Below, in pieces: positions 3,521 to 40,925 of a DNA stretch of 64,000 nucleotides. The DNA comes from Akkermansiaceae bacterium (lineage in GTDB: Bacteria > Verrucomicrobiota > Verrucomicrobiia > Verrucomicrobiales > Akkermansiaceae), in contig JBIIAI010000001.1 in the NCBI GenBank assembly GCA_044239965.1, positions 1,190 through 65,189 of the forward strand, given 5' to 3'. Made by a program: the position numbers and the translations under genes. Each line of letters opens with the position of its first letter. Position 1 is the first letter of the stretch. The notes beneath the pieces are model-generated. The model saw nothing but the letters and a program-made list of their open reading frames with translations. It was not told where the DNA came from and ran no database searches.

Positions 3521-3571
3521 GCCTACCAATTTCAGATTTTTTGCTGATCACTTTTTTCTCTATTTACCAAC

Positions 3572-3898
3572 ATGAAATACCGTTCGATTACCCTACTCAT
3601 GGTGCTGTGTGCCTTCTCTCTCAACTCCTGTAAAGATGATCCCGCTCTGGTCAAGCAGCGCGAGGAGCAGAAAGCAGAGATCGCTCGCCTCGAGGGGGAA
3701 ATGAACATTCTAAGCGAGAAAATCGATGCATTGCCGGCGGATCGCAGCGATGAGCTGGCCGATACCAAGAAAAAAGTAGAGCTCCAGAACGAAGAAATGG
3801 CCAAGCTGGAAAAGGATATCACCACACTTCAGGCGAAAAAGCGTGGTCTCGAAGATGAATTTGCGCAATATCAGCGGAAATATCCGGTAAATCGCTAA
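3572..3898 (+). CDS. small lipoprotein, coiled coil only
   Basis: 108 aa. MKYRSITLLMVLCAFSLNSC gives a signal peptide and lipobox-like Cys. The rest is charged and heptad-like (EEQKAEIARLEGEMNILSEKI...). It lies 51 nt after the preceding gene on the same strand. Confidence 0.6.
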   Translation: MKYRSITLLMVLCAFSLNSCKDDPALVKQREEQKAEIARLEGEMNILSEKIDALPADRSDELADTKKKVELQNEEMAKLEKDITTLQAKKRGLEDEFAQYQRKYPVNR

Positions 3899-3959
3899 TC
3901 TCGAAGCGAATTTTTACTCTAACACTTTTACTACTTACTTTTTTACCTGATTTACGATT

Positions 3960-4976: not shown

Positions 4977-5002
4977 TCGATCGGACTCAATGAGAAAATT
5001 GC

Positions 5003-5575: not shown

Positions 5576-5730
5576 TTTTTTCGTCGAGAGGACTGATCTT
5601 TTAGCCTAGTGACCAGAACTTTTTCAGTGCCATGATCACGGAAAAGCTATGCTGTAGAATGCTTCCGTTAGTATGATATGTCTCTCGGTAATGCTTGCGC
5701 AAAAACACAAGTGTTGTGCGCAAAATCTCA

Positions 5731-5759
5731 TTGACATCGGGTTCCCGGCTTGGTAGGTT
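5731..5759 (+). promoter_or_regulatory. putative sigma70-like promoter upstream of the first halogenase-like gene
   Basis: TTGACA (5731-5736), an exact 17-nt spacer, then TAGGTT (5754-5759), 64 nt upstream of ATG 5823. It is immediately preceded by an imperfect palindrome at 5695-5723. The promoter consensus for this phylum is not known to me, so this is weak. Confidence 0.3.
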
Positions 5760-5822
5760 AGCCGAGTAATGAATGCTATACCTAAGCATTCATGCAAGTA
5801 ACGTTTTACCAACCCAAAACCC

Positions 5823-21212: not shown

Positions 21213-24200
21213 ATGAAAGTCAAAAATCAATTATTTCTTCGTGCCGTCACAGGTTCCACCTTACTTCTTTCACTAACACAAGCCGCTACTGTGGTTTGGG
21301 ATGGTGGTGCAGCAGGCACTGGAACAACCCTAGAAACTGCTAGCAACTGGGTAGGTGATGCCTTGCCGTCAGTAGCTGCTGACACCATCCAATGGAATGG
21401 CACGGTAGCGGGTCCATTGAGCTTGAGCTATGCTTCAGGATTAGGAGGTGCGGCTGGCAACATCGGTCTCAATGTTAATTTGACGAGCGCACAAACCAGT
21501 GCTGTGAGCATTGATTCGGCAACGAACACAGCGATCCGCTTGAATAACGTGACATTGGACAGCGGCGCGGGAGCTTTTACTTTGGGAAACGGCACGGGTA
21601 GTGGCGCTTCTGCTTTTGCGATCACACTCGGTGGAGCGACGAACCAAACGCACACTTGGTCGAACAACTCCACGAATACGGCTACCATCAACAATGATGT
21701 GTTGTTTGGTTTGGGCGGTGGTGGCATTCACGCATTGCAGTTTACTGGATCAGGAAATTGGGATGTGAAAAACAACCTTACCGTCAGTAATGCTGCGACG
21801 ACCGGTGTTCAGTTTTCTTTGCAAAAAACCGGAGCAGGAACGCTTACTTTGTCGGGTGGAGGTAGCCTCAAAGCAGGGCCAGTCGCATTTGGATCTGGGA
21901 CTACAGGATTTGGTGCTGTCTTTAAGGCAGGGATTACCAACATCACGGGCGGTAATTACGCGTTCAATTCGAGCGAATTGGTGGTCGGTGGTTTGGACGT
22001 TGCTGGAACTAATACACAACTCAACTTAAGCAATGCTGGGGCCATTACTGGTGTGTCATGGTTGAGTATTGGACGCGGCAACGGTGCCGGCGCGGTTTCT
22101 TCGAACCTAACTCTGAACAATACGTCATCTGTCGCCGCCAATGATATGAGCGGGGGCTTCAATGCTGGCAATACGAGTACAGCACCGAAGGGTGTGGTGA
22201 CTTTGAACGATTCCTCTACTTTGACGGTAGTATCGAACGTGCAGTTGGGTGAGTCGGTGAATTCTGATATCACGCTGAACATCAACGGCACATCGACATT
22301 TTCGCAAACGAGCACCACTGGCGGAAGCACGAGACTGGGGATGGCGAATGGAGCCAAAGGCACCATTAACGTGGGCGGTGGCACGGCAAATTTTCAACGG
22401 GATTTGGTTCTTGGCTCTGGAGGCACAGGATCAGGGAAATTGGTGCTGAATTCAGGAATAGTGAATATGGCATCGACCGTAGAACGCTGGCTGATCGTCG
22501 GCAATGCGGCCGGTGCGAGTGGTCAGATCGACGTCAATGGCGGGGAACTGCGATTGAATACGAACACGGACATTCGTATGGGCGTGGGAACAGTTGCTAC
22601 TACGGGTGTAGTAAATCTGAACGCTGGTGCGATCACCGGATACGTGGGCAATGGAACAGGTGGATTTAGTACTACAAGTGTAGTAGATATGCAAAACCAA
22701 GGTGCTGCATCATCGAACAATACTTTCAACTTGAATGGTGGAACCTTGACGATCGGGCAAGTGATTTCAACCGCCACGACAGGCACACGGACATTCAATT
22801 TCAATGGTGGCAGCCTGAAAGCCGCGGGCGCGAATGTGAACTTTTTCAACATCGGAACTGGCAGCGCGACTGCATCGGTGAAAAGTGGTGGAGCGATCAT
22901 TGACTCGAATGGTTTTGATGTGACCGTTGTCAACTCTCTCGTCGATGGCACGGGCGGCGGTGGCCTCACAAAAAATGGCGCAGGCACGCTGACCCTTTCT
23001 GGAGCAGCGAGCACATATACAGGTGCGACCAATGTGAACGTCGGCACGCTGAGAGTGAATGGGAATCTCACCTCGAACATTAGTGTCGCCAATGCGGCCA
23101 CACTGAGTGGCAATGGCTCGACTACGGGAACCGCTTCATTTGCAACTGGTGCGACTTTATCGGTCGATCCAGTAGCAGGTGACTTTGCGGCAGCAGGAGT
23201 GAATTTCGCAGGCTCGACCACGCTATTTTTCAGTTCTGCGTTGACCACAGGAAACACCTACGACGTCATTACTTACGCTGGTGGCACACTCTCGGGCACA
23301 TCGAACTTGGTGAAAACAAGTCGTGGCAATTTTGCTGACACGGGGACAAAGCTTACCTTCACAGCAGGCGGTGTATTGACTGATACATGGAATGCGGTTT
23401 CGGGCACCTGGCAGATTGGTGTTAGCACACCGTGGAGCAATGGCTTTGACGGTGAGTTTTGGAATAGCGATACCGTTGTGTTTGACGATACTCCGGGCGT
23501 GGATTCTACAGCCACGATCGTAGGCAATGTGGTACCAGCAGCGGTGAATGTTTCTGGTGCGACCAATCACTCCTTCGCAGGAAGTGGCGCAATTTCTGGA
23601 TCCGCTGCGATCAATAAAACGGGCTCGGGCACCTTGACGATCGGCAACGTTAACACCCACACTGGTGCCTTAACGATTTCAGAAGGCACGGTCGTCTCCA
23701 CCGTTAGCGGAGGATTGAGCACTGCCGCTGCGACCGTCCTTGCTGGTGGTACTTTGAACCTTGGTGGTATTAGCCAAACCTCGGGAGCCTTTTCGATTGC
23801 CGCCGCTGCGGCCTCGGGTGACACTGTTTCTAACGGCACGTTGAATCCGACATCGACAGACGTCAGCAACGCCTCGGGCAATGCGATTGTTTCTGCAGCG
23901 ATTGGATCCGGACCCTTGGTGAAAACTGGTGCGGGCACACTGACCATGAGTGGTGGTGCGAACTTTAATGGTGGTATCAATGCTTTCGGCGGCTCCTTTG
24001 TTTCCGTTCTAAAAGAAGGTCAAACGGAGATTACAGCCGGCACTTATAGTTACAACAATGGCGAACTTGTCGTTGGCGGACTTGATGCAGTGGGCACCAA
24101 CACAGAATTAAAAATTTCCAATGCGGGTGCTCTGACCAACATGTCATGGTTGAGCATCGGCCGTGGCAATGGCACCGGCGCGACCTCCTCTAACGTAAGT

Positions 24201-25871
24201 CTCTACGATACATCAAGCATCTCTGCAGCGAACATGTCGGCGGGTTTCAATGGAGGCAACGCCGCGACTGCTCCGAAAAGTGTCATCTCGTTGAACAATA
24301 GTTCCTCCTTGAACATTGGTTCAGGTGGCGGTTTCTTCGTTGCCGAAAGTCCTGGCTCACATGTGACGATGAACCTCAGTGGTAGTTCGGCCGTTACGAT
24401 CAATGGCAATGGCACTGCGATTAACCGCAGCATTGGTCATCTCGGCACCGGGATTTTGAATGTCAGTGGCTCCGCCAACTTCACAGATCAAAGCAATCAG
24501 GCGCTAAACATTGGTTTCCAAGGTGGCGTTGGCGAAGTTAACATCAATGGTGCGACGGCTCAGTTCAATCATCCGAACGGTGAAGTGCGCGTGGGTGCCG
24601 CGAATGCGAACGGAGCTTTTACTGGAGGCTCTGGCACGATTACGATCACCGAGGGCAATGCCGTGGTGGGTGCCTTGACTTTGGCGCGCGGGAATAACAG
24701 TGCTGCGCAGATCAATGGCACGGTGAATGTGAACGGTGGTACATTTACCTCGACGGGTGATGTGGTTCTCGGCTTCGCAGGTGCGGGCAATGTGGGACGT
24801 CTCAACGTCAACGGTGGTACTTTCAACGTCGGCACAACGGCGTCCAAGTGGTTGCAAGTGGGAGGTTACGATACTGCGATTGCTGAAGTCGTAATCGGTT
24901 CGGGTAACCTGAACTTGAATACCAATTCTGCGATCAAGATGAGCCGACAAAATGGAACAGGGGCTCATACATTTACCATGAATGGTGGCAATGTTACGTA
25001 TTTCAGTGACAATGCGACAACGGTTGGCGGAACGGGAGATCTCGACTTGCAATACGTTGGTGCCGCGACGACGAACAATACCTTCCATTTGAATGGCGGT
25101 GTGCTGACGGTCCCGAAAATCATCACCACGACTGATTCGGGAACGGTTGCCCTGAATTTGAATGGTGGCACGATCAAGGCAACAAACAACGAGGCCAATT
25201 TCCTCACCTTGGGTGGAGCAAATCAAAAGGTCTACGTCAAGAGCGGCGGAGCGGTGATCGATACCAACGGCTATGACATCACGATTGCCGAAGGGCTCGT
25301 TGATGGAGGAGGTAACGGTGGTCTAACGAAAAATGGCGAAGGCACTTTGACATTGTCGGGCACTAGCACCTACACAGGAACAACTACCGTCAATGCTGGT
25401 ACGCTCTATATCACGGGTGCTCTGGCCTCTACGAATTTTGTTGTTGAAGCAGGAGCAACCGTTGCAGGAAATGGCACCATCAGCAGCGATGTAACTTTGG
25501 ATGCAGGTGCAGAACTGAATCTCACGGGAGCAACGATCGATCTCGCAGGTAGTTCGAACATCCTCACCGTTGGCCTGAGCAATTCCATTACTCTTACAGA
25601 CTTCGGTTTTGCGAACATCGTCGGTTGGGACGCGGCTTCGGCAGCAGATGGCACTTATACCTTGATCAATGGTGCAAGTTCCGTGACTTTCAACGGCACG
25701 ACTCCGACTGCCGCAACTCCATTCTGGTTTGTTCCCGATGTGAAAAAAGGCTACTTCCAGCAAGGTAGTTTGCAGGCAGTGATCGTCACCGTTCCTGAGA
25801 CAAGCAGTGCGCTTCTTGGCGTGTTGGGTGCTTCTTGTGTATTCTTACGCCGCAGAAGGAATGCGAACTGA
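21213..25871 (+). CDS. giant secreted PATR repeat protein with a PEP-CTERM sorting tail
   Basis: 1552 aa. Signal peptide, then the VVWDGG motif. Two internally duplicated roughly 700-aa beta-helix modules each end in PATR units. The C-terminus VPETSSALLGVLGASCVFLRRRRNAN (nt 25791-25868) has the PEP-like motif, a TM helix and an Arg cluster. Confidence 0.85.
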   Translation: MKVKNQLFLRAVTGSTLLLSLTQAATVVWDGGAAGTGTTLETASNWVGDALPSVAADTIQWNGTVAGPLSLSYASGLGGAAGNIGLNVNLTSAQTSAVSIDSATNTAIRLNNVTLDSGAGAFTLGNGTGSGASAFAITLGGATNQTHTWSNNSTNTATINNDVLFGLGGGGIHALQFTGSGNWDVKNNLTVSNAATTGVQFSLQKTGAGTLTLSGGGSLKAGPVAFGSGTTGFGAVFKAGITNITGGNYAFNSSELVVGGLDVAGTNTQLNLSNAGAITGVSWLSIGRGNGAGAVSSNLTLNNTSSVAANDMSGGFNAGNTSTAPKGVVTLNDSSTLTVVSNVQLGESVNSDITLNINGTSTFSQTSTTGGSTRLGMANGAKGTINVGGGTANFQRDLVLGSGGTGSGKLVLNSGIVNMASTVERWLIVGNAAGASGQIDVNGGELRLNTNTDIRMGVGTVATTGVVNLNAGAITGYVGNGTGGFSTTSVVDMQNQGAASSNNTFNLNGGTLTIGQVISTATTGTRTFNFNGGSLKAAGANVNFFNIGTGSATASVKSGGAIIDSNGFDVTVVNSLVDGTGGGGLTKNGAGTLTLSGAASTYTGATNVNVGTLRVNGNLTSNISVANAATLSGNGSTTGTASFATGATLSVDPVAGDFAAAGVNFAGSTTLFFSSALTTGNTYDVITYAGGTLSGTSNLVKTSRGNFADTGTKLTFTAGGVLTDTWNAVSGTWQIGVSTPWSNGFDGEFWNSDTVVFDDTPGVDSTATIVGNVVPAAVNVSGATNHSFAGSGAISGSAAINKTGSGTLTIGNVNTHTGALTISEGTVVSTVSGGLSTAAATVLAGGTLNLGGISQTSGAFSIAAAAASGDTVSNGTLNPTSTDVSNASGNAIVSAAIGSGPLVKTGAGTLTMSGGANFNGGINAFGGSFVSVLKEGQTEITAGTYSYNNGELVVGGLDAVGTNTELKISNAGALTNMSWLSIGRGNGTGATSSNVSLYDTSSISAANMSAGFNGGNAATAPKSVISLNNSSSLNIGSGGGFFVAESPGSHVTMNLSGSSAVTINGNGTAINRSIGHLGTGILNVSGSANFTDQSNQALNIGFQGGVGEVNINGATAQFNHPNGEVRVGAANANGAFTGGSGTITITEGNAVVGALTLARGNNSAAQINGTVNVNGGTFTSTGDVVLGFAGAGNVGRLNVNGGTFNVGTTASKWLQVGGYDTAIAEVVIGSGNLNLNTNSAIKMSRQNGTGAHTFTMNGGNVTYFSDNATTVGGTGDLDLQYVGAATTNNTFHLNGGVLTVPKIITTTDSGTVALNLNGGTIKATNNEANFLTLGGANQKVYVKSGGAVIDTNGYDITIAEGLVDGGGNGGLTKNGEGTLTLSGTSTYTGTTTVNAGTLYITGALASTNFVVEAGATVAGNGTISSDVTLDAGAELNLTGATIDLAGSSNILTVGLSNSITLTDFGFANIVGWDAASAADGTYTLINGASSVTFNGTTPTAATPFWFVPDVKKGYFQQGSLQAVIVTVPETSSALLGVLGASCVFLRRRRNAN

Positions 25872-31900: not shown

Positions 31901-32031
31901 TTGCGGCGGGCGAGTTGGCCCATGGGATCAGTTATACCATTGAAGAAAATGGCACGGAACCTGATGACATTCGTGTCACGATTCCGATCCTCGATGCGCG
32001 CAGGTTTTGGAGATTGCAAACCAGCTGGTAA
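25957..32031 (+). CDS. large secreted multidomain protein: Ig-like repeats, LamG-like, cadherin-like, lamin-tail (LTD), CotH kinase-like, second LTD, C-terminal DxDxDG module
   Basis: The ORF opens at 25897, but the ATG at 25957 gives the signal peptide MNATRSIVFATLACLFFSLCAQAG.
- LamG-like region from about 26260 (LKHRWSFNEGSGN...WQRVFDFG...YKNG...NEFRIWNRSMS).
- LTD 1 from about 27820 (IHEINYNPS...EFIELFNPTSAAIDLSSWRL).
- CotH-like core around 29350-30600 (MRLRGGNSRYMGAGKRHFRFNFPKG at 29581).
- LTD 2 from about 31108 (ISEIMYHPD...FEYIELLNISPSLTLDLTNVRF).
- The tail begins DPDGDAVANRLEYILGGDP at 31672. Confidence 0.8.
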   Translation: MNATRSIVFATLACLFFSLCAQAGIVSFTASRETFLPGQQVVLSWDVTAGDAISISPSVGTVSGTTGSVTVVPTADTTYLLTNATSGTTASVSLSMHKAATLKHRWSFNEGSGNTVIDSVAAVNGVIVPSSSTIPANQHSRSASMVTLPGGSSGTRPYIDLPNTSMSGLEEVTIEGWMTPIQPSGTNTRIWQRVFDFGTGTAGEVNSRGGTFSGVSYLFLALQNGTNTGVKVPGIRDDSTEQNISIADAIGYGAEFHFAYVYDLDGNAGSPQIRYYKNGVLMTSLNTPHLLTGIPFDNVWLGRSNWSADSNTQASYNEFRIWNRSMSAERVADNAAAGADAFPTSVSIDSLTAFPALTIESGQTARLSYVIANPSGGSFTASINQGVGAVTGTEGFVSVTPTATTTYTLSVTAGAITRTANVTVTVTPGSHPAAENLSYQIPHNTTTAARMVANDYQTNSLSYSIVTPPANGVLSGTAPFYFYTPNAGFAGVDSFTYKANDGGLDSNTATVTLTVLPAPVAPTAVTASDSVIYTDAVNGSFITRLRTTDGNPDDTFSYALVNGVGDTHNAWFILNQHQLLSARNFSLDSGVAVSIRVRVTDSASNSFEQVLTFSVSPRPQTVMIHEINYNPSRNTQASEFIELFNPTSAAIDLSSWRLANAVDYLFPVGTTIPANGYLVIAENPAVIQSMYVVASLGPWTGGLSSQGESIELRNALGNVVDSVDFGNSAPWPTAPNGDGASLELVNGTFDNNVGGAWSASTSVIASQTYLSAGSAGWQYFKGTSEASTPMTAWRAESFNDSAWTSATMPLGIFKINSDTPSSFNAETGVTLATQINDMATFNGSSFTAAYNSVFLRKNFTVTGAIPRALVLRVMRNDAAIVYINGTEVARFGFSPDAPAEPAYNSTAIYERANDPWSDILWLNPGTLLHQGTNTMAIHAYAKPPQLRANQEDVGVYRIFDFCVDADLRTPAEMIGTPGAANSSAVTNAAPPVRNVDHSPSAPKPWESIKITARVSDAQGLGSVQLAYQICTAGNYIPATLPRTTAQVLADASIPPPANPAFEDPANWTVIPMTDAGGLNDQAGDGIFTAIIPAQPHRTLIRYRIVATDLTGNIRTIPAANDPRRNFAAYSYHRVPNFTAGGTTYTADTLDDIPVYQLLMRPADFTSLLAYNGGDQYANSSALNVLNARHYENFLGTMIVGDQVMDHTAMRLRGGNSRYMGAGKRHFRFNFPKGHMLQAYDEKGNKYGAKWDSLLFNKLFGNKGAYDFGLPYEVGTKLWGLQGVPMPEATYVHFRVVRDADENHATNGDFWGLYQALELPEGKNFLDARNLPKGNFYKTTDWQQNGEMDQRYQAPGAPEFAEDFDNIRYNIHQTTAQSDIERFINMPLWYKYNAVQEAIRHYDIFTEPTGRHRVKNLIWYFHPTENSNGLGQLWYMPYDWDASFGPNWNSGWDNTHNAIYNHDAITDSPTWQLPMANRDPMKIAHRNAIREFRDLVWYREPSTGRGPFDDIIDDAMAPIAQFYQADMARWPNNAGAAAYWPGGAPAKVQDMKNFSFVSWSDPFGGDPAVGSGGRAAHLDAISDAIDSGLLPSTPTITYNGAPSFPVDGLAFASSAFADPQGSNTFQAMQWRIGEVTDANAPAYDPLADRIYEVTPVWESGTRTSFASTQLIPGAALRVGHSYRARVRHQDSSGRWSHWSAPVSFTTTISNYVEILKQNLMISEIMYHPDVPSAAEAAAGFVESDFEYIELLNISPSLTLDLTNVRFTKGIDFDWAFAPITSLAPGQRVLIVKKQAAFVMRYGVASVPIVGEWDSLDSLSNNGEQLKLSYGAGVAIHDFVYDDLAPWPTAADTGFYSLVLFDPMSAPNHGVAINWRASYVIKGTPGSSEFTSYAEWAAHWTLSDPAGDPDGDAVANRLEYILGGDPTENDVGILPKPSREGANLVLEFQRRDGAEWGEMLMLQSSSNLSSWPLASEVLLGSSSVAAGELAHGISYTIEENGTEPDDIRVTIPILDARRFWRLQTSW

Positions 32032-32402
32032 ACGAGCGTTGTGGTTTGGCATTTCCCTAGTTCTTTGGCTTATTGTATGCAAAAACTGATGTATTTTGCA
32101 CCAAATCGAACCTTTAGATGAATTCTGTGCTGATGATTGCCTCAAGTTTTTTAGTGCGCAAAATCACAATTTTAATACGCAAAATCAAATTCCATTTCTC
32201 CAAAAGTGGTATATACTTCGTATGCGTGTGTGAGAAAGGCTTCTTCGAGGCTTCCATTCCGAGCAAAACCCCAAACATGATCTGTAAAAAATGCCATCTA
32301 TGATGGGATTTTCGAGATCATGCCAAAACGAGTGTCTTGCCAAAATGGAAGCGCAAAGAGCTCCATCGCCCGCGCACGTTTCCAAACCCATCGTCCACGA
32401 AA

Positions 32403-35400
32403 ATGAAAAATCCGCAGTTGGTTCAAACCTCGAAACGAGGGTTCACTCTCATCATTACCATCAGCTTGCTGGTCTTGCTGACGATGGTAGCAGTGGGCGT
32501 CTTATCGCTTTCTTCCGTGACCTTGCGTGCTTCGAATCAAGGCAATGCCAGCGCTGTCGCACGGGCGAATGCACGACTGGCGTTGATGCTCGCGATTGGT
32601 GATTTGCAAGTGACGATGGGCCCTGACCGAGCTGCCACGGGAAAAGCTGGTTCATTGTTTCCCGATAGTCCACGACAGCATTTGTTAGGCGCATGGCAGG
32701 GTTTTGGATGGCAAGCGCCGAGTGGCCTAGCGCCCGCCCCTAGCGAGAAACAACAAAAATTTTCGCGTTGGCTTACCTCTGTCAGCGATCAAACCGCGCG
32801 CTATGACCTCAACTACGGCAGCACTGGCTCTGCAGCGGATGAAGTGTTTCTGATCAATTCTCAGACGAGTGGCACCTTGCCGAACAGGAATCCGGAATGG
32901 AAAGCGGAGCGACTCCCTTTGCGGGTGGGCAATCAAATCGGTGGCTTGGCTTATGGCGTGATGGATGAGACCATGAAGCTACCCATCAATATGGAAGATC
33001 AAGAGGCGGGAAATGCCATGGATAATTACGCACATCGCTTAGTTCCTCCCTCAACGCGACCCGAAGTGATTGATCCTGATTTTACATGGCAAAATCCCGA
33101 GGGTCTAATCTCACTACCCACAGCATCGTTGGCCTTGGCGAAAAAGTCTGAATCCTTTGCCGCACGCCAGCAGGATCTCAGCATCGGCTCCTACGGGTTG
33201 CTGACCGACCCCGTGAGTGGTGGCCTCAAAATTGATCTTACACCGTTGATGGAAGGCACGGCTGGCGCGAATATCACCAGTGTCACTGGCTCAACTACTC
33301 CATACTACAGCGTCACAGATGGCGCGCCTACTTGGGACTACTTGCGCAGCTACTACCAACTCTATAAACGCACCATCACCCCAGGCGCACCGAGCGTGCG
33401 TCTAACCACTTCCAATGAATTGCGCCCCAGTTCGGTTGGGCTAAAGCCATCCCCAGCCACGGCCTCATTGCTGCCTGTGATTGCCAAGCTCCAGATCATG
33501 TTCTCGATGGTTTCTCACCATCACCACATTGGCGACCGTATCCAATTTCACAATGAAAAAGCCGTGCCGCCAGGCAATACCAATCACGCTGTGCCTCACC
33601 TCGTTTATGAACCAATCATCACGCTCTATAATCCGTATGATGTCTCTCTCGAGTTTACCTCCTTGCGCGTGCGCATTTCTGATCCTCCCGTGGGTTTTCA
33701 ATTTCAAAAGCACGATATCGCAAAGGGCACCAATCCATGGTATCGTCAAGAATTCGCCAATGGTGAATACCACAGTCTCGCGCGCTTTCAGATCGCCAAT
33801 GAGAAAAACAATTCCGCACGAAAATTTTTCACCTATCACTTGAAAAACAAAAGCACTTCTGGAACTCCGGGCGGAACACTCAAGCTACTGCCCGGTGAAG
33901 TTCGCGTTTTCTCAGCCTACGTTGAAAAAAATTGGACATGGGGCATGGAGACATCGGGTGGTTACACACCGCGCGCATTCTTTGACTGGAATGCAGGGGA
34001 GGACTTGGGCAATATCGACCGCCGCAGTAGCAACCAGTTTGGCTTGGATGCGATTCCCGGCGTCGATTTCCGTGCTGGATTGCAAACCGATCACATGAGC
34101 TATGGTGGCGGCCGTCCAGCCGATTCGCGCTACGACTTTGAGGTCGCCAACAACTGGGGCGGTGGATTTCTTTCGATGAGGCTCACCGATGAAGTCACCG
34201 TGAACGCCCGCGCGCAACGCTGCGTCACAGACCCATCTCTTCCTGATTTCCGAGTTGATTTGTTGGCTGGTGTGAATACAGCAGCTACGGGCGATATTCT
34301 GCGCACCTATGATTTTCGTTTTGCCAATCCTGCAACCGAGCTCGGCTTGACCACCACCATCACAAGGCGTTTTCGCAATGCAGACATCTTGCAAAGTCCC
34401 GCTGACAAAACACCAGGCGGGAAAAGTCCCTTTGCGATTTTAACCATGTCGGCGAAGACCACTCGCGATGTTCGTGACGATAGCAAAGCATGGCTGCAGA
34501 ACAATTTTGCTACGGAAGGCGCATCTCAGCAAACTACCAAAGTGGGCGCAGCGGTACAAAGTTACGATGTTCGCTTGCAGGAAGTGACCAGCTACAATCA
34601 GTTTCCCGGCGTTGAGATCGACCCGAGCACGGATCGTGGATTTTATGGTGCTCGTCCTACCTCGCGCGATGGTGTCTCCGTGGTGCCGATGTATCGTGTT
34701 CCTGTTCAGCCTGCTGCTTCGTTGGGCGCGTGGATTGCTGGAAACTTAGTGACCAGCTCGCTGTTTCCGCGCGTTAATTATCCGTTAGGAAATTCCTTTG
34801 CCCATCCGATGTTGCCTTCGGGCGCGATTACTCAATCATCACCCATGGGAGGCAGTCAAAAATTGTTAGATCACAGCTATCTCATGAATGCAAGCTTGTG
34901 GGATCGCTACTTTTTCTCAAGTGCCACCGACAACAACAGTGTGATGTTTGCCGACAAGCGTTCGCGTAGCGTGGTGCTCAACGATTTCTTTGCACAAAGA
35001 AAACCGATGTTGAACAATCGCTTGGTGGCAGTGCGTGGTGATGAGTCGGCAGAAAATCTAGCATCACGGGTGGCCGCTATGGACTCGAAGACCCAGGCGC
35101 AGCAGTTCGCTCAATTTGCGATGATCAAAAATCCTTTCAACGTCAATAGTGATTCGGTCGATGCTTGGCGCGGAGTTCTCTCTTCCTTACGCGATCACGA
35201 CGTGATGGGCTGGAACAATAGCACATTCTCTTCGCCTGAAAAAACGGCATTTTCGCGAGTGGGTGTGCCCGTGGCTGGTTCTTCTGATGACCCGAATCCG
35301 AACAATTCCGTGAATGCGCAAGGTCAGTTGCGCTGGGCTGGATATCGTGCACTCACCGACAAGCAGATTGAAGAATTGGCCCAGCAGATTGTCTTGCAAA

Positions 35401-35963
35401 TCCGTGAACGTGCGAAGGCTGATAAGGCTCCATCTTTGTCACTAGGTGATTTTGTCAATCGTCGCATCGGCAGCGATAACGATCTGCATGCCTTGAAAGG
35501 AATCTTGCAAACGGCAATTGATCAGACAGATATCAATAGTCGAAACCACAACTTGGATTCGATCAATCTCGCCGATCCTATTGGCAATCGTGGCACAGCA
35601 GTGGCCAATCGTGCCGCACTGCGCGGCAACAGTGCCGATGGTGCTCCCTCGATCCTCACGCAAGGGGATTTGATGACGGCATTGGCGCCGATCATCACGG
35701 TGCGTGGCGATACCTTCACCGTCCGCGCCTATGGCGAATCACGCTCGGTGGATGGCAATACTGTTCTGGCTCGTACATGGTGTGAGGCGACGGTGCAACG
35801 CACTGTCGATTATGTCGATCGCACCAATGCTCCCGTCGATCGTGACCTCAGTCTGACCAATATTGGTAAGACAGGCTTGAAAGATCTCAGTCTCACCAAT
35901 AAGGTCTTTGGCCGTCGTTTGGTAATCACTTCATTCCGCTGGCTGAACGCTGCGGAAATCTAA
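32403..35963 (+). CDS. large pseudopilin/PilX-N-like anchored protein, Verru_Chthon cassette protein A-like
   Basis: The ORF opens at 32337 on TTG. The ATG at 32403 gives MKNPQLVQTSKRGFTLIITISLLVLLTMVAVGVLSLSSVTLRASNQGNASAVARANARLAL. This is a prepilin/PilX-like N-terminal hydrophobic helix without the conserved Glu5, followed by about 1100 aa with no motif I recognise. Size and N-terminus match my recollection of TIGRFAM Verru_Chthon cassette protein A. This is unverified. Confidence 0.55.
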   Translation: MKNPQLVQTSKRGFTLIITISLLVLLTMVAVGVLSLSSVTLRASNQGNASAVARANARLALMLAIGDLQVTMGPDRAATGKAGSLFPDSPRQHLLGAWQGFGWQAPSGLAPAPSEKQQKFSRWLTSVSDQTARYDLNYGSTGSAADEVFLINSQTSGTLPNRNPEWKAERLPLRVGNQIGGLAYGVMDETMKLPINMEDQEAGNAMDNYAHRLVPPSTRPEVIDPDFTWQNPEGLISLPTASLALAKKSESFAARQQDLSIGSYGLLTDPVSGGLKIDLTPLMEGTAGANITSVTGSTTPYYSVTDGAPTWDYLRSYYQLYKRTITPGAPSVRLTTSNELRPSSVGLKPSPATASLLPVIAKLQIMFSMVSHHHHIGDRIQFHNEKAVPPGNTNHAVPHLVYEPIITLYNPYDVSLEFTSLRVRISDPPVGFQFQKHDIAKGTNPWYRQEFANGEYHSLARFQIANEKNNSARKFFTYHLKNKSTSGTPGGTLKLLPGEVRVFSAYVEKNWTWGMETSGGYTPRAFFDWNAGEDLGNIDRRSSNQFGLDAIPGVDFRAGLQTDHMSYGGGRPADSRYDFEVANNWGGGFLSMRLTDEVTVNARAQRCVTDPSLPDFRVDLLAGVNTAATGDILRTYDFRFANPATELGLTTTITRRFRNADILQSPADKTPGGKSPFAILTMSAKTTRDVRDDSKAWLQNNFATEGASQQTTKVGAAVQSYDVRLQEVTSYNQFPGVEIDPSTDRGFYGARPTSRDGVSVVPMYRVPVQPAASLGAWIAGNLVTSSLFPRVNYPLGNSFAHPMLPSGAITQSSPMGGSQKLLDHSYLMNASLWDRYFFSSATDNNSVMFADKRSRSVVLNDFFAQRKPMLNNRLVAVRGDESAENLASRVAAMDSKTQAQQFAQFAMIKNPFNVNSDSVDAWRGVLSSLRDHDVMGWNNSTFSSPEKTAFSRVGVPVAGSSDDPNPNNSVNAQGQLRWAGYRALTDKQIEELAQQIVLQIRERAKADKAPSLSLGDFVNRRIGSDNDLHALKGILQTAIDQTDINSRNHNLDSINLADPIGNRGTAVANRAALRGNSADGAPSILTQGDLMTALAPIITVRGDTFTVRAYGESRSVDGNTVLARTWCEATVQRTVDYVDRTNAPVDRDLSLTNIGKTGLKDLSLTNKVFGRRLVITSFRWLNAAEI

Positions 35964-35975
35964 CAGAAAATTTTT

Positions 35976-36704
35976 ATGCGTAATTTCTTTTTCTCCCTTT
36001 TCTCAATCGCTCTTCTGCCTCTCTCTTTGGTGAGTGCCCAAAATGCCGTGCCGGGCGCGCGTCAAGTGCAGTTGCGCTTGCTGTCGTTTTACTCCGAATC
36101 CGCCATGCCCGAGCTCTATGCTCACAATGCGCAAAACCCCGAGAAGGGCGTTGGCATCTTGACGCCACTGAAAAATTACCTTAACCACGAATCGGTGACG
36201 GTGAGTTTGACTAGCGATTCGATGTTGTTCACCGCCAGTGCGCAAGCACCGAAGCCAGATCAGGTGTTGGCGAAGGTGACCTTGCCCGCGAAAGGCACTC
36301 AGTTCATGCTGGTGTTTTTTCCTGGCGAAACAAAAGGCTCCTTCCGCGTGATGGCGCTCGATGATAGTCGCAAAGCATTTCCGTTAGGTTCCTTCCGTGT
36401 AATGAATCTGGCTCGTAGCAATGTGCGCCTTACCCTAGAGACGACCAACTACGATTTCACCCCTGGCAAGGAAATCATCATTGAGGATCCACCCGTCAAA
36501 GATAACAACCACAGTGGCATGTATTGCTTCGCGCAAATCAGCGGCAAGTGGGAGCGCATCGGCTCAGGCCTGTGGCCGCATCCGGGAACCAAACGCGATG
36601 TGCAGTTCTTCTTTGAAAATCCTCAGACCAAGTTGATCGAGTTGCGTGGTTTCCGCGACATCTCACCGCCGAGCGCCACGCCACCACCCGTGGTGACTCC
36701 TTGA
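35976..36704 (+). CDS. secreted hypothetical protein, probably co-transcribed with the cassette-A-like gene
   Basis: 242 aa. Signal peptide MRNFFFSLFSIALLPLSLVSAQN, a beta-rich body and a Pro-rich tail PPSATPPPVVTP. The start is 12 nt after the upstream stop. Confidence 0.6.
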   Translation: MRNFFFSLFSIALLPLSLVSAQNAVPGARQVQLRLLSFYSESAMPELYAHNAQNPEKGVGILTPLKNYLNHESVTVSLTSDSMLFTASAQAPKPDQVLAKVTLPAKGTQFMLVFFPGETKGSFRVMALDDSRKAFPLGSFRVMNLARSNVRLTLETTNYDFTPGKEIIIEDPPVKDNNHSGMYCFAQISGKWERIGSGLWPHPGTKRDVQFFFENPQTKLIELRGFRDISPPSATPPPVVTP

Positions 36705-36717
36705 TTTTCCTGCAAGA

Positions 36718-38199
36718 TTAGGTGCCACAAAATGTCTGCCAGACTCGTTCGTGAGCGAGGGGAGCATTTTCCCAGTGGCTGAATTCTTCGATTTCCTGAT
36801 AGGGATTGCGCAGCGCCATGATGGCTTCCTCCGACGGAGAAAAGTCCCCCTGATAGGCTGCTTGGATCACCGCCTCGATCCGATGATTGCGGGGAATGCG
36901 CACAGGGTTGTGCTGTTTCATTTCCTCGAGCAGTGCCGGATTATGCTTGGATTTCCAATCGTCCAACCATTGTTGTGCGATCGTGTGAGAGGAAAACTGC
37001 GCCGCTACGTTGCGGTTCTCTGCGTCTTCGGCATGCCGAGTGAGTGCGCGGAAAAATCGAGTAAAGTCCATCCGCTGATCTGCCAGCATGCCGAGCGATG
37101 ATTTGATCCATGCTGCGCCGTCATCGTCCGTAGCATCAGCGGAGATGCCGAACTTCGCGCGGAACAAGCGCAGGTAGTGACGATGAAAAATATCGCCAAA
37201 AGTTGCCAGCGCCGATTGCGCGATTTCAAGTGCGTGCTGGGAATCGTTCGAGAGCAAAGGCAAGAGCGTTTCGGCAAAACGAGTCATGTTCCAGTGGCCG
37301 ATCGATGGCTGATTTCCCCATGCGTAGCGTGCTTGTTGATCGATGGCACTGAAGACACATTGCGGATGAAATTCATCCATGAAGGCACAAGGACCGTAGT
37401 CGATGGTCTCGCCCGATACCGCGCAGTTGTCGGTATTCATCACGCCGTGAATGAAACCTAACGAAAGCCAATGCGCGATGAGTTGCGCTTGCTTGGCGAT
37501 GACCCATTCGAGCCAGCGAGCGATGGGCTCTGGTTCATCGAGCAAATGCGGAGCATGCCGTGCGATCGCGTAGTTGGTGAGCAGTTGCAGGGCCTCCTGA
37601 TCGTGACGCGAGGAAAAATACTCGAAGGTGCCGACGCGAATGTGACTGGCTGCAACACGAACGATCAGCCCGCCGGGAAATGCTTCTTCGCGATGAACTG
37701 TTTCGCCCGTGCTCAAGGCCGCCAAGGCACGGGTGGTTGGCACGCCGAGTTGATGCATCGCCTCGCTGACAAGATACTCGCGCAGCACAGGGCCAAGTGC
37801 CGCTTTGCCATCGCCATTGCGCGAATATGGAGTGCGACCACTTCCTTTGATGTGAACATCGTAGCGTTGCCCTGCCGCATTGACAATTTCGCCTAACAAA
37901 AGTGCACGACCATCGCCGAGTTGTGGTGAAAATCCGCCGAACTGATGACCTGCATACGCCATGGCAATCGGTTGCAGCGTTTCGGGATAGGATCGCCCGC
38001 CAAGTAGCGCAAGTGCCTCAGGTGATTTCAGCGAATCAGGATCGATGCCAAGAGTCCGGGCAAGTTCTGCATTCACCGCAATCATCTGCGGCAGCGGCCC
38101 CGGTTTCGCCGAGAGCCGAGCATAAAATCGTTCAGGTAGTTGCGCGTAGCTGTGTTCCAGAGGCAAAGTCACCCCGCACCATGGCACTGCTATTTGCAT
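36718..38199 (-). CDS. selO: protein adenylyltransferase SelO (YdiU/UPF0061 family)
   Basis: 493 aa with the family hallmark YAGHQFGGFSPQLGDGRALLLGE, plus GSGRTPYSR, DGKAALGPVLREYLVSEAM and HGVMNTDN. Confidence 0.9.
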   Translation of the reverse strand: MQIAVPWCGVTLPLEHSYAQLPERFYARLSAKPGPLPQMIAVNAELARTLGIDPDSLKSPEALALLGGRSYPETLQPIAMAYAGHQFGGFSPQLGDGRALLLGEIVNAAGQRYDVHIKGSGRTPYSRNGDGKAALGPVLREYLVSEAMHQLGVPTTRALAALSTGETVHREEAFPGGLIVRVAASHIRVGTFEYFSSRHDQEALQLLTNYAIARHAPHLLDEPEPIARWLEWVIAKQAQLIAHWLSLGFIHGVMNTDNCAVSGETIDYGPCAFMDEFHPQCVFSAIDQQARYAWGNQPSIGHWNMTRFAETLLPLLSNDSQHALEIAQSALATFGDIFHRHYLRLFRAKFGISADATDDDGAAWIKSSLGMLADQRMDFTRFFRALTRHAEDAENRNVAAQFSSHTIAQQWLDDWKSKHNPALLEEMKQHNPVRIPRNHRIEAVIQAAYQGDFSPSEEAIMALRNPYQEIEEFSHWENAPLAHERVWQTFCGT

Positions 38200-38428: not shown

Positions 38429-39358
38429 ATGAATTTTCTTTCTCGTGGTATTTTGTTTCCCTTGGCTTTGGCGGTTTGCACGGCGGGGGCGTGGTTGACT
38501 TTGACTCCAACGGAGGCGCTGGCTCAGACGAAAGTCGAGACGAAGAAAAAAATTGTTTTTGTTGCGGGCAAACCGAGTCATCCCAAGGGCGAACATGAGC
38601 ACCGGGCCGGCTGTATGTTGTTGGCAGACCATTTGAACAAGAGTGGATTGCCGGTGGAAGCGGTAGTCGTGACGGATGGCTGGCCTCAGGATGCGAGTGT
38701 GTTTGATGGCGCCGCAGCGGTGGTGATTTATTCGGATGGAGGCAATGGGCATCCAGCGATGCGGCAATTGCAGGTGATGCGTGCGATGATCGAAAAAGGT
38801 GTCGGCATCGGCTGCATTCACTATGCGGTGGAAATTCCTGCGGGTGAAGCGGGTGATACCATGCTCGATGGCATTGGCGGATATTTTGAAATGAATTGGT
38901 CAGTCAATCCTCATTGGGATGCGAAGTTTACCCTACCAGAGCATGAGATCACGCGCGGCATCGATGCTTTCAGCATTCGTGATGAATGGTACTACCACAT
39001 GCGTTTTCGCAAGGAAATGGAAGGCATCAAGCCGATCTTGAGTGATCTGCCACCGAACGAAACTCTCACACGTGGCGATGGTCCGCACTCGGGCAATCCG
39101 CATGTGCGCGCTGCGGTGCAAGAGCGCAAGGAATTGCAGCATGTGATGTGGGCCTTTGATCGTCCCAAGTCACTGGGTGGTGGTCGCGGGTTCGGCTTTA
39201 CTGGTGGGCATTTCCATAAAAATTGGCAGCACGATGATCATCGCCGTGTGGTGCTGAATGCGATCACCTGGATCGCGGGTGTGGAAGTGCCTGCGGATGG
39301 TGTGCCATCAGCCACGCCTGATGACGCGGCGATGAAGGCGAACTTGGATGCGAAGTGA
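38429..39358 (+). CDS. secreted ThuA-like (class I glutamine-amidotransferase-like fold) protein
   Basis: 309 aa. Signal peptide, then KKIVFVAGKPSHPKGEHEHRAGCMLLADHL and later FGFTGGHFHKNW. This pattern is typical of ThuA-domain proteins of Planctomycetota and Verrucomicrobiota as I remember them. Confidence 0.6.
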   Translation: MNFLSRGILFPLALAVCTAGAWLTLTPTEALAQTKVETKKKIVFVAGKPSHPKGEHEHRAGCMLLADHLNKSGLPVEAVVVTDGWPQDASVFDGAAAVVIYSDGGNGHPAMRQLQVMRAMIEKGVGIGCIHYAVEIPAGEAGDTMLDGIGGYFEMNWSVNPHWDAKFTLPEHEITRGIDAFSIRDEWYYHMRFRKEMEGIKPILSDLPPNETLTRGDGPHSGNPHVRAAVQERKELQHVMWAFDRPKSLGGGRGFGFTGGHFHKNWQHDDHRRVVLNAITWIAGVEVPADGVPSATPDDAAMKANLDAK

Positions 39359-39364: not shown

Positions 39365-40792
39365 TCACACGGCACCCAGTCCTGGGCCGGTGAGGTCTTT
39401 GGTGTGATACTTGCCATCGTGGCTGGCGAAGATGCCGGGGAAACGTTTTTCCCAACCGGCGTTGGCGATGGGCACATACTGGCGGGCGTTTGATTCGATG
39501 GTCGAAACTCCCGGCACGTGGGCGGCGATGCCGCAGGAATGGACTAGCGATGCACCGGGGCAGGTGAGGTCTTGCACGCAGGAAAACATGTCGTATTTCT
39601 TTCCCGCTACGGCCATGAGGATTGCGTGGCTTTGGCCCTTGCAGGCCTTGAGGCACATGCCGGTGTAGCCGATTTCGCGCGCGGCGAGTAGGGTTTCGAG
39701 ATCGGTGAGTGATTCATCGATGACCACGGGGCGGATTTTCGATGCCGCATGCATCGGCTGTTGCGGTGGCGTGAGGATGTCGCGTTTGGTTGGCTGTTCG
39801 AGATAGAGAATGTCATCCAATGCGCGCGGAGATTTTTCGCCGACCTTTTGCAAAAATTCCATCAGGTAGGCGGCATCGGGGCATTTTTCATTAAAATCGC
39901 AGCAGTATTTCCATTCGACATCAGGTCGTGTGGCGCGGGCGACGTGATCGATGGCAAGCGTGCGCTCGATGTCCCAGTCGAGGTTCTCTCCTTGGAGTTT
40001 GATTTTGATGCGCTGGAGTTTGTCGTGACGGATCCACTCGGCGAGTGTTTCGGGCAGACCATCGTTGATGCGTTCTTTGAGTTCGTCAGGCGTGACGGCA
40101 TCGAGTCCGCCGACCGAGTGAAACAACCAGATCCAGTCGTGGGGTTTGCGGGCGAGAAAGGTTTCGGGATAGAATCCCTGAAAATCTTTGCCGAGATAAC
40201 GCGAGAGATCGTAGCCCATGCACTCGGCATTGTAGGTGTCGTAACTGCTCACGCCTAGCGATTTTCCCATCGCATCGTGAAGCGCGGCATCGAAGGCGCT
40301 GGCGACAACTTGCGTGCAGAGCTTGGGGATCGGCGTGGCGAGTTTGTGCTGCTTGCTGATGTCGATCGCCGCGGCGAGATAAGCGGGTTCGAGCACATGG
40401 TTGATTTCGATTGGATGGGCGCGTTCTTGGTAATCGGCGGTGATGCGCTGGATTTCTTTTGCTAGCAGGCGCATGGCATCGAGCGTTTGCTCGTAGGTCA
40501 TTTCCTTCGAGGGATAAGACCAAATGTTGCCCATCGGCATGGCACCGGAGCCTTGGGTCGACTTGCCATTGGCTCCTTCCACGGTGACATCGACGTGAAG
40601 CATCGTCACGCGATCGACGGCGGTGCCACCAAACTTGTAGGGCATGCGATACTTGTGCTCGATGAATTTCATGTCCACCTCGCGAATGCGAATGCCCTTG
40701 TGATCAGGTGTGGTGTGGATCGCAGGCGCGGCCCCGATGGTCCAGATGGATCCGAGCGCGGCGCTGCCATGAAGAAAATCTCTGCGTGTCAT
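39365..40792 (-). CDS. enolase-superfamily (mandelate racemase/muconate lactonizing-like) enzyme with a twin-arginine signal
   Basis: The ORF opens at 40903, but the ATG at 40792 gives MTRRDFLHGSAALGSIWTIGAAPA, a Tat motif (T-R-R-x-F-L). The core shows KxK (RIKIKLQG) and the metal-ligand series CDFNEK, LYLEQP, VVIDESL. Confidence 0.65.
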   Translation of the reverse strand: MTRRDFLHGSAALGSIWTIGAAPAIHTTPDHKGIRIREVDMKFIEHKYRMPYKFGGTAVDRVTMLHVDVTVEGANGKSTQGSGAMPMGNIWSYPSKEMTYEQTLDAMRLLAKEIQRITADYQERAHPIEINHVLEPAYLAAAIDISKQHKLATPIPKLCTQVVASAFDAALHDAMGKSLGVSSYDTYNAECMGYDLSRYLGKDFQGFYPETFLARKPHDWIWLFHSVGGLDAVTPDELKERINDGLPETLAEWIRHDKLQRIKIKLQGENLDWDIERTLAIDHVARATRPDVEWKYCCDFNEKCPDAAYLMEFLQKVGEKSPRALDDILYLEQPTKRDILTPPQQPMHAASKIRPVVIDESLTDLETLLAAREIGYTGMCLKACKGQSHAILMAVAGKKYDMFSCVQDLTCPGASLVHSCGIAAHVPGVSTIESNARQYVPIANAGWEKRFPGIFASHDGKYHTKDLTGPGLGAV

Positions 40793-40925
40793 GATGTGAT
40801 CATCGGCAAACGTGGCTCGGCGGCAAGGGAAAAGTGGGATTTTAAAGTGCAGGGCGATCAAGCATTCTGATGTCGAGCGTTTCGGACAAAGTCGAAAGAG
40901 CAATCAATCGTCAACGAGTCATCTC

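Follow-up and report, generated by a model that had tools for sequence, protein, structure and literature searches.

The two-gene unit and its surroundings

The window, by which we mean the whole 64-kb stretch of DNA that was analysed, comes from a freshwater Akkermansiaceae genome and carries a two-gene unit composed of a large gene coding for a giant pseudopilin-like protein of 1186 aa and the gene of a small secreted partner. This two-gene unit is unstudied, and the family of the large protein is unnamed: its members are annotated mostly as "hypothetical", and it is without a Pfam or NCBIfam model of its own. The following features were delineated:

32032..32402, no strand: intergenic stretch upstream of the large gene, 371 nt, GC ~0.44, presumed to contain the promoter of both genes
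32403..35963, + strand: large gene, giant cap-type (without Glu5) pseudopilin-like protein, 1186 aa (the coordinates include the stop codon)
32403..32441, + strand: short basic leader MKNPQLVQTSKRG, read from the sequence, its terminal Gly belonging to a G↓FTL site of the prepilin-peptidase type (putative cleavage)
32442..32618, + strand: long N-terminal alpha-helix, residues 14-72, first half hydrophobic (AF2 model, paralog comparison)
33465..34472, + strand: central beta-rich "head" module, residues ~355-690, variable among paralogs (conservation profile, stand-alone homologs, AF2)
34680..35960, + strand: conserved C-terminal scaffold, residues ~760-1186 (~430 aa), common to all paralogs and thousands of relatives
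35976..36704, + strand: partner gene, 242 aa, Sec-type signal peptide and two tandem beta-sandwich domains (sequence, AF2, synteny)

The 1186-aa open reading frame starts with the ATG at 32403 (a longer frame opens at the TTG at 32337), and this start yields a 13-residue basic leader, a length that agrees with the ortholog consensus. The N-terminus reads MKNPQLVQTSKRG and then, past the Gly-Phe site, FTLIITISLLVLLTMVAVGVLSLSSVTLRASNQ; the residues after the leader are FTLIITISLL, with Ile and not Glu at +5. The features that define a class III signal peptide, i.e., a short basic leader, Gly at -1, an aromatic or hydrophobic residue at +1, and ~20 hydrophobic residues that start a long alpha-helix, are all found here (MKNPQLVQTSKRG followed by FTLIITISLLVLLTMVAVGVLSL, AF2 helix at residues 14-72). 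A sequence-only reading of this locus had pointed to a prepilin/PilX-type N-terminal helix lacking Glu at +5 and to about 1100 aa without recognisable motifs behind it, and both observations hold: the Ile at +5 is read directly, and a Pfam search of the 1186-aa protein and its 242-aa partner gave no match at E <= 0.01. The Pfam N_methyl model does not match the 1186-aa protein either.

Between the end of the preceding ORF, at 32031, and the large gene lie 371 nt of non-coding DNA. The AT-rich character ascribed earlier to this non-coding stretch is confirmed by a GC of 0.436 in 32000-32499 against 0.51-0.57 in the flanks. Searches of the stretch gave no Rfam match, no consensus sigma-70 site on the + strand, and no motif common to it and the upstream regions of the paralogs. 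The large gene is flanked by the partner gene and by the gene of a secreted protein of 2044 aa. A six-frame motif scan of the window revealed no second class-III-type N-terminus in a long open frame (apart from the large gene, it hit just a fragment of 10 codons and, weakly, an internal site unlike a prepilin leader), and genome searches with TIGR02596, TIGR02598, and TIGR02599 placed nothing on the window's contig, in agreement with the earlier statement that no short prepilin-type genes flank the large gene. The designation "orphan" given to the gene is correct as far as its distance from pseudopilin genes goes, but the arrangement is not unusual: every one of the 10-13 copies in the genome lies away from pseudopilin genes, and isolation from other pilin genes was also seen at all loci checked in this respect, 11 orthologous and two relative ones.

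The partner gene begins, as had been noted, 12 nt past the stop codon of the large gene (gap 35964-35975) and codes for a protein with a hydrophobic, Sec-type N-terminus, for which cleavage is predicted by eye at VSA↓QN. The AF2 model of the partner (pLDDT 87.7) finds its best structural match in the two-Ig-like-domain extracellular region of PepT1/PepT2 (E 2e-6, TM 0.5-0.6). A downstream partner on the same strand is present in 58 of 60 orthologous loci from other Akkermansiaceae, across genera, which bears out the suggested pairing of the 242-aa gene with large-type genes elsewhere. Within the genome, a diverged partner homolog adjoins 9 of the 11 informative copies of the large gene; two of the nine full-length paralogs are without a partner. 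Across pairs, the similarity score between large proteins correlates with that between their partners (Spearman 0.72), which is what joint duplication of the two genes would produce. The conserved association identifies the 242-aa gene as a genuine partner of the large gene, and the two probably constitute a conserved operon. In comparisons with the closest relative, the dN/dS values of the large gene (0.056) and of its partner (0.070) exclude chance ORFs; as judged from these substitution patterns, both genes are under strong purifying selection and have retained their function.

Comparison with known families

The description of the 1186-aa protein as "cassette-A-like" in the sequence-only reading did not survive the comparison with the Verru_Chthon cassette protein A model, TIGR02600. 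The model scores 15.6 bits (E 0.0027), with residues 13-70 aligned on profile positions 1-58 of 1296, while its curated cut-off is 332.3 bits. The match is likewise confined to the helix in 32 of 37 orthologs and in 7 distant relatives of ~1300 aa, and the top score is ~27 bits in individually scanned orthologs and distant relatives alike. The models of cassette proteins B, C, and D (TIGR02598, TIGR02599, and TIGR02596, respectively) gave nothing above cut-off in the whole genome. With such a score, an unmatched body, and no B, C, or D genes on the contig, the assignment to cassette protein A is not supported; some orthologs carry this name in UniRef, and the model score does not back it. The giant and cassette protein A are alike in their size class, verrucomicrobial origin, and type of N-terminal helix, but instead of B, C, and D genes of the prepilin type the giant has a non-pilin, Sec-secreted protein as its partner.

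The first ~60 residues account for every sub-threshold match to TIGR02600, NF037980 (GspK), and PF14341 (PilX_N). Matches to GspK (29 of 37) and PilX_N (16 of 37), at residues ~10-80, come from orthologs only. The GspK models NF037980 (cut-off 130 bits) and PF03934 T2SSK (cut-off 24.2 bits) leave the window protein unmatched and score 15-21 bits with orthologs, over the N-terminal ~65 residues; PF14341 likewise does not hit the window protein, and its ortholog matches are weak, the best having an E of 0.008. These profile similarities support the assignment of the N-terminus to the GspK/PilX/cassette-A type. The prepilin-type N-terminus without Glu at +5 that characterizes GspK is present in the 1186-aa protein; the position after gspH-I-J in a pseudopilin operon, which also characterizes GspK, is not, as the large gene stands alone. 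The giants share with GspK, the type II secretion cap pseudopilin (NF037980, PF03934), and with PilX, the equivalent of GspK in type IV pili (PF14341), the prepilin-type leader, the absence of Glu at +5, and a helix followed by an Ala/Asn/Arg-rich segment. They differ from both in being ~4 times larger, in lacking a match to the GspK body and H/I/J neighbours, and in being present in 10-13 copies. No PilY1 signature (IPR008707) was found in the 1186-aa protein.

Scaffold, head module, and paralogs

The genome contains 13 copies or fragments of the large gene (10-13 genes), which are scattered, and a motif count gives 11 giants without Glu5 versus ~10 canonical prepilins. Homologs of the large protein are present in 55 of 61 genomes of the family Akkermansiaceae, and in public data the large-protein family comprises ~5,200 clusters at 50% identity. 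As a rule, a cap-type pilin that lacks Glu5 is encoded once, within a minor-pilin operon. The giants are the most numerous pilin-like genes of their genome, four times the usual size, and they stand alone with a conserved partner.

The paralogs are only 25-31% identical overall, and their conservation is uneven: the N-terminal 80 aa are ~50% identical and the C-terminus is 30-48% identical over most of its length, whereas the centre (residues ~330-720) has 8-22% identity per 40-residue bin, ~10% in most bins, and many gaps. The +5 residue is hydrophobic in every paralog of the genome, while the ~10 canonical prepilins picked up there have Glu. The segment FTLIITISLLVLLTMVAVGVLSLSSVTLR of the N-terminal helix is 100% identical in three paralogs at the protein level with DNA identity of only 69-78%, and in six paralogs the protein identity of the helix is 87-100% with DNA identity of only 62-78%. 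Such protein-level identity despite diverged DNA argues for selection for one docking surface and not for gene conversion.

As judged from the conservation profile, the body consists of a conserved scaffold (residues ~73-350 and ~760-1186) that bears a variable central head (~355-690), and AF2 places strands at 359-727 of the 1186-aa model with pLDDT mostly of 80-94. The head module also exists alone behind a Sec signal peptide, at seven loci in other Akkermansiaceae genomes that code for proteins of 449-494 aa. The head and its stand-alone secreted homologs are 39-48% identical and share 77 invariant positions, which include many charged residues and one His. Since the same module is found as a free secreted protein, the grafted head is an autonomous unit. 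Further AF2 strands lie right behind the helix (77-188) and at the C-terminus (1104-1181). A Foldseek search with the full-length 1186-aa model returned no pilin and no PDB relative (best E 0.11), and a comparison by hhalign with the GspK-like protein of 888 aa from the genome itself aligned the helix only. Neither in sequence nor in fold does the body thus detectably resemble GspK or another pilin, and pilin-type packing of a beta-sheet on the helix is hypothetical.

The combination of a pilin-type carrier with a separable functional module is that of a modular pilin sensu PMC8179133, and in this respect the 1186-aa protein resembles PilB and PilC of Streptococcus sanguinis, CofB, and ComZ (PMC8179133). 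In the giant, however, the module is not appended but inserted, with a conserved part of the scaffold on either side. The largest modular pilin quoted in that survey has 860 aa versus 1186 aa of the giant protein. In addition, the giants are multi-copy, have variable heads and a dedicated partner gene, and carry no InterPro or Pfam signature in any part.

A possible role at the filament tip

The genome encodes filament machinery that the giants may share. Contig C244 carries genes of GspF, two GspE, a major pilin, and an H-I-J-K-type minor-pilin cassette, which includes a separate, more ordinary K-like gene (888 aa, with an ININTA motif); a candidate prepilin peptidase, with a score below the Pfam cut-off, is encoded on contig C148, and secretins and PilT ATPases are encoded as well. 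No physical linkage of the giant genes to filament genes was found in the genome. Akkermansiaceae genomes without giants still have the filament platform, and thus the phyletic pattern neither supports nor tests the dependence of the giants on it.

Gene structure, family size, synteny, selection, modularity, and the lack of known homology beyond the helix are established here. As to the role of the pair, we lean somewhat towards the reading that it consists of a modular cap-type minor (pseudo)pilin and its cognate partner, the copies serving as interchangeable tips of one filament. The prepilin peptidase would cut the basic leader of the giant protein at Gly-Phe, and through its hydrophobic N-terminal helix the protein would then dock into a type IV filament core, that of either a type IV pilus or a T2SS pseudopilus. 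The giant would be incorporated as the first subunit and be found at the filament tip because its body of ~1100 residues is too bulky for the filament interior. The filament tip is the only place with room for bulky modular pilins, and GspK, a modular pilin with an inserted domain, is located there (PMC8179133). The 10-13 giants, with their near-identical docking helix and different heads, would be alternative tips of one shared machine encoded elsewhere, every head having its own binding or capture specificity. The partner, which has duplicated and diverged together with the large gene, would be exported by Sec; its most likely role is to bind the body of the giant in the periplasm and either to act as its dedicated chaperone or to be displayed along with it as a subunit. 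With respect to tip adhesins, the giant is comparable to PilY1/PilC, proteins of ~1,100 aa at the pilus tip that follow the same carrier and effector idea (PMC8179133), if the giant indeed takes this place; PilY1, however, with its Sec signal peptide, depends on minor pilins to hold it, whereas the giant bears a pilin-type helix itself. If the giants are interchangeable tips, they would show how polymer-degrading Verrucomicrobiota diversify the binding of one pilus machine, and the "modular pilin" idea would reach in them its largest and most multiplied form.

A broader and considerably more speculative proposal, which we offer tentatively, is that Akkermansiaceae (Luteolibacter, Haloferula, Roseibacillus, and freshwater lineages) possess a combinatorial tip repertoire, in which one retractile type IV machine receives its cap, according to need, from a set of 10-20 giant K-type pilins with a common docking helix and scaffold, different heads, and two-beta-sandwich partners of their own that mature or accompany them, for surface capture of diverse polymers or particles. 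If true, the tip repertoire would play a role comparable to that of the multiplied SusC/SusD pairs of Bacteroidota and would be built on a protein fold without a solved relative.

Alternatively, the large protein may be no filament subunit at all but a periplasmic or surface protein whose helix is just an uncleaved signal-anchor in the inner membrane, where the protein works with the periplasmic partner, e.g., in envelope or glycan processing. The body has no detected pilin fold or pilin domain, pilin genes are absent nearby, and the 77 invariant head positions could mark an enzymatic or ligand site, all of which fits this explanation. We nevertheless consider it unlikely: the canonical K/R-G-F-T-L site would be superfluous for a plain anchor, which would also have no need for a protein-identical helix across such diverged paralogs, and the GspK/PilX-like A-x-x-N-A-R-L-A-L segment past the hydrophobic stretch is unexpected in a mere anchor.

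It is also rather improbable that the giants serve as alternative caps, resembling GspK, of the pseudopilus in type II secretion and act in secretion and not in display, each recognising one class of cargo and pushing it through the secretin, with the partner as cargo or released adaptor. The N-terminus is indeed closest to the GspK and cassette-A models, the partner with its Sec signal peptide and compact two-domain beta-sandwich is typical of exported proteins, the head module is also a free secreted protein, and the genome encodes secretins and GspE/GspF. To our knowledge, however, no T2SS has many alternative K subunits, and the body shows no GspK similarity past the helix. The PilT-type retraction ATPases suit true pili at least equally, and it would be strange if 10-13 dedicated systems had as their sole cargo a ~240-aa partner in which no enzymatic signature is seen.

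Finally, decay of a four-gene Verru_Chthon cassette with loss of genes B, C, and D, the "degenerate cassette" of the sequence-only reading, would account for the absence of these genes and for the weak N-terminal TIGR02600 match but is very improbable given the body unrelated to that profile, intact frames under purifying selection (dN/dS 0.06-0.07), a two-gene arrangement kept in 58 of 60 loci across genera, 10-13 copies in the genome, ~5,200 public clusters at 50% identity, and homologs in 55 of the 61 family genomes.

The pair of genes and its family assignment

The large gene is preceded by two very large genes for secreted proteins and is followed by its partner gene, in the following order within the window:

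about 21213-25871, + strand: very large secreted protein, 1552 aa
25897-32031, + strand: very large secreted protein, 2044 aa, with Laminin_G_3, Big_9/cadherin-like, two Lamin-tail, CotH kinase-like and Ig_Rha78A_N domains
32403-35963, + strand: large gene, ATG start, 1186 aa
35976-36704, + strand: partner gene, 242 aa, Sec-type signal peptide, beginning 12 nt past the stop of the large gene
36718-38199, - strand: SelO/YdiU protein adenylyltransferase (519.9 bits), converging on the end of the partner gene
38429-39358: ThuA-like gene
39365-40903, - strand: enolase-superfamily gene; its TAT-signal match is weak and below threshold

The open reading frame for the 2044-aa protein stops at 32031, 371 nt before the large gene, and the 500-nt bin around this gap has a GC content of 0.436 versus 0.51-0.57 nearby; the upstream regions of the paralogs have no regulatory motif or RNA in common. 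The N-terminus of the large protein, read from the ATG, is MKNPQLVQTSKRG/FTLIITISLLVLLTMVAVGVLSLSSVTLRASNQ, i.e., a basic leader of 13 residues, a prepilin-peptidase-type Gly-Phe site with Ile and not Glu at position +5, and then an extended run of hydrophobic residues. The frame is open farther upstream, from a TTG at 32337, and the leader length in the orthologs is that of the window protein with the ATG start. When all six frames of the 64-kb window were scanned for the motif, no other long open frame had a class-III-type N-terminus; the scan gave just two further matches, one in a fragment of 10 codons and one weak and internal. What the sequence-only reading had observed directly (the reading frame, the N-terminus, the partner, the upstream stretch and the absence of flanking prepilins) was thereby borne out in full.

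Its tentative placing of the large protein with protein A of the Verru_Chthon cassette was not. TIGR02600, the model of protein A, matches residues 13-70 only, over profile positions 1-58 of 1296, with 15.6 bits versus a curated cut-off of 332.3 bits, and membership is ruled out on both score and coverage. Such an N-terminal-only, sub-threshold match is present in 32 of the 37 orthologs, and the pattern recurs in seven ~1300-aa proteins that are more distantly related; the same ~60 N-terminal residues are matched by the GspK model NF037980 in 29 orthologs, and Pfam PilX_N is matched in 16. The models of the other cassette members (B, C and D; TIGR02598, TIGR02599 and TIGR02596) gave no match above cut-off anywhere in the genome and none at all on the window contig. 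No true TIGR02600 members were found at E <= 1e-20 in 121 genomes of the phylum, but the controls were silent too, which makes this negative uninformative.

Pfam contains no domain matching the large protein or the partner, nor was there a Pfam match to the C-terminal 277 aa of the large protein, and the large-protein profile matched no PDB sequence at E <= 1. No homology to the body of GspK was found: hhalign, run against the 888-aa K-like protein of this genome, aligned the helix alone. The segment 'NPFNVNSDSV...' looks somewhat like the 'INxNTA' motif of GspK, but this likeness, seen by eye only and confirmed by no tool, was dropped. The recognizable part of the large protein is a cap-type (GspK/PilX/cassette-A) N-terminal helix only, while the ~1100-residue body is a member of no described family: the protein fell short of every family model, and among the model-based tests it passed only that for the class-III N-terminus. 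Our literature search found no paper naming the 'Verru_Chthon cassette', and searches for Verrucomicrobia with pseudopilin and Akkermansia with prepilin found nothing apparently addressing giant pseudopilins or the present family.

Copies and architecture of the large protein

The source genome is a 3.73-Mb MAG (351 contigs, 87% complete) of an Akkermansiaceae bacterium from fresh water; the large gene has a 100% match in a contig of a 'Verrucomicrobiae bacterium' MAG and a 97% match in 'Akkermansiaceae bacterium UBA956'. A profile search of the genome returned 13 paralog matches, nine of them full-length or nearly so (contigs C4, which holds the window, C209, C326, C164, C184, C321, C339, C227 and C32) and four truncated by contig ends (C295, C76, C169 and C63). 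Because these four are fragments, the true number of genes is 10-13, a range that also reflects the incompleteness of the MAG. Several of the large-gene or partner copies are truncated at contig ends (C295, C76, C169, C63, C321 and C106), which suggests that the large-gene family contributes to the assembly breaks of this MAG. No pseudopilin genes are found beside the large-gene copies in this genome, and solitary placement, which had earlier been taken for an 'orphan' oddity, is the norm for the family.

A signal-peptide protein of 219-249 aa is encoded directly 3' of seven copies (C4, C209, C326, C164, C184, C321 and C295), and these seven partners are mutually homologous with an identity of only 14-29%. 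On C339, a weak partner match adjoins the large gene, within a 385-aa ORF overlapping its 3' end; on C106, a partner lies at the contig end; on C227 and C32, the partner is absent. In the AlphaFold2 model of the window partner (pLDDT 87.7), the signal peptide precedes two beta-sandwich domains in tandem. Its sole significant structural matches are to the extracellular region of PepT1 and PepT2, which consists of two Ig-like domains (E 2e-6, TM 0.5-0.6), a match that is uninformative on function. There were no Pfam or NCBIfam matches to the partner, and its profile gave only one chance-level match among PDB sequences (E 0.23). Conserved partner motifs include YLNHE, FPLGS, HS and GSGLWPHPG.

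In the alignment of the nine long paralogs, residues 1-80 are ~50% identical and most of residues 760-1186 are 30-48% identical, with residues 330-720 falling to 8-22% per 40-residue bin (~10% in most) with 7-57% gaps. The protein sequence of the N-terminal helix FTLIITISLLVLLTMVAVGVLSLSSVTLR is 100% identical in C4, C209 and C169, and three further paralogs match it at 87-97%. Since the helix DNA is only 62-78% identical among paralogs, recent gene conversion was rejected as the source of this identity; the pattern is that of purifying selection acting over a long time on a single docking surface. An AlphaFold2 model built with the 37 orthologs predicts one compact body (pTM 0.80, mean pLDDT 79.4):

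residues 14-72: helix
residues 77-188: strands
residues 359-727: beta-rich core, the best-predicted part
residues ~855-1094: helical region
residues 1104-1181: closing strands

Foldseek searches with the full-length model found no significant match, either in PDB, where the best E was 0.11, or in BFVD. The central module, or head, is an autonomous unit: it is encoded alone in seven loci of other Akkermansiaceae (L095, L096, L098 and L100-L103) and at L029:4509-5975 (-), as proteins of 449-494 aa in which the counterpart of residues ~355-690 comes immediately after a Sec signal peptide. These stand-alone heads share 39-48% identity and 77 invariant positions with the large protein, many of them charged (charged or His examples are H372, D378, R379, R422, K436, E508, D539, D563, E580, D615 and K674), and the partner gene is absent from their loci. 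They also carry an extra C-terminal extension of ~100-130 aa. Within the head, a highly conserved His-rich stretch, FSMVSHHHHIGDR ... VPHLVYEPIITLYNPYD (residues 368-379 and 398-413, ~nt 33504-33641), contains S368, V370, H372, H375, R379, P398, H399, Y402, T407, N410, P411, Y412 and D413, all invariant in the 37 orthologs, and D378, likewise invariant when the free-standing modules are compared; this stretch may be a metal or ligand site.

Filament machinery and the possible role of the pair

The type IV filament cluster of the genome lies outside the window, at C244:9054-24367, and includes:

C244:18943-19560: major pilin with Glu5
C244:19604-20869: GspF/PilC
C244:21000-24367: two GspE/PilB-type ATPases
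C244, ~5 kb farther along the contig: H-I-J-K-type minor-pilin cassette of four genes (230, 177, 249 and 888 aa), with the I- and J-like minor pilins at 9743-11022

The first three proteins of this cassette have Glu5, the 888-aa fourth lacks it and has a weak T2SSK 'ININTA' match, and the cassette scores below the Verru_Chthon cut-offs. The genome also encodes three secretins, as well as three PilT-family ATPases that score above cut-off, and a candidate prepilin peptidase is found on C148 in two pieces, each below the Pfam cut-off. The giant proteins could thus draw on a filament machine, an ordinary tip cassette and retraction motors. Another small set of pseudopilin genes is located at C256:3645-5392.

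The absence of Glu5 is a hallmark of the topmost subunit, GspK or PilX, of T2SS and T4P. We lean towards the view that the large protein is a modular, cap-type minor pilin, one of a set of alternative tips, each with a cognate partner. The 10-13 genes have one docking helix and one scaffold with different heads, and the giants would serve as alternative tips for one shared machine. The partner was duplicated along with the large genes and diverged faster, and would act as a cognate periplasmic chaperone or a co-displayed subunit. Processing, incorporation, tip location, contact with the partner and ligand binding are all inferred. Such a unit would work most like GspK/PilX-type caps and modular pilins. 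It differs from all described examples in its size (1186 aa versus 860 aa, the largest modular pilin quoted; PMC8179133), in having its module inserted inside a conserved scaffold, in copy number, in the isolation of its genes from other pilin genes and in having a dedicated non-pilin partner.

Alternatively, the large protein may be a mere membrane-anchored periplasmic protein, but this is unlikely given its canonical cleavage site and a helix that is kept across otherwise divergent paralogs. Similarly improbable is a scenario in which the giants are K-type caps with a specialized role in secretion and the partner is their cargo or adaptor.

Conservation across Akkermansiaceae

Homologs of the large protein were found in 55 of 61 sampled genomes of the family, with up to ~20 matched stretches per genome, two of which often stem from one gene; genomes without the giants keep T2SSF platforms, which makes the phyletic comparison uninformative. 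Cultivable relatives such as Haloferula luteola, Luteolibacter marinus and Roseibacillus ishigakijimensis carry the orthologous pair. The 74 loci compared came from named genomes, with Luteolibacter, Haloferula and Roseibacillus represented alongside many MAGs, and 60 of these loci had enough DNA past the 3' end of the ortholog to be judged. The co-occurrence of the partner proposed for checking in the sequence-only reading was confirmed: 58 of these 60 loci have a partner homolog downstream of the large gene and in the same orientation, within ~310 nt of the large-gene stop in 54 and at ~800 nt in four. Compared with the 97% relative, the large gene has a dN/dS of 0.056 and the partner gene one of 0.070. 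When 1.84 billion cluster representatives were searched exhaustively with the profile, 5,177 proteins matched at E <= 1e-3, of which 2,956 reached E <= 1e-30; the 150 best matches listed are mostly 1,100-1,350 aa long, and in many of them the match is strongest over the C-terminal ~500 residues. With a conserved pair, low dN/dS and a large family, the pair is therefore no decaying remnant, and the degenerate cassette suggested earlier is excluded for all practical purposes.

At L045 (Akkermansiaceae MAG AnMBR.bin208, 3126-7238), the matches to the large protein and the partner are in a single stop-to-stop frame, which represents either a natural fusion of both genes or a lost stop codon. In G054, a complete 3.2-Mb genome of a small-genome genus of Akkermansiaceae (g3), ~1300-aa relatives are encoded at L104:7587-11498 (-), L104:11786-14731 (+) and L105:6366-10400 (+). 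They stand alone, without a recognizable partner homolog, and a 309-aa signal-peptide ORF is located downstream of one of them.
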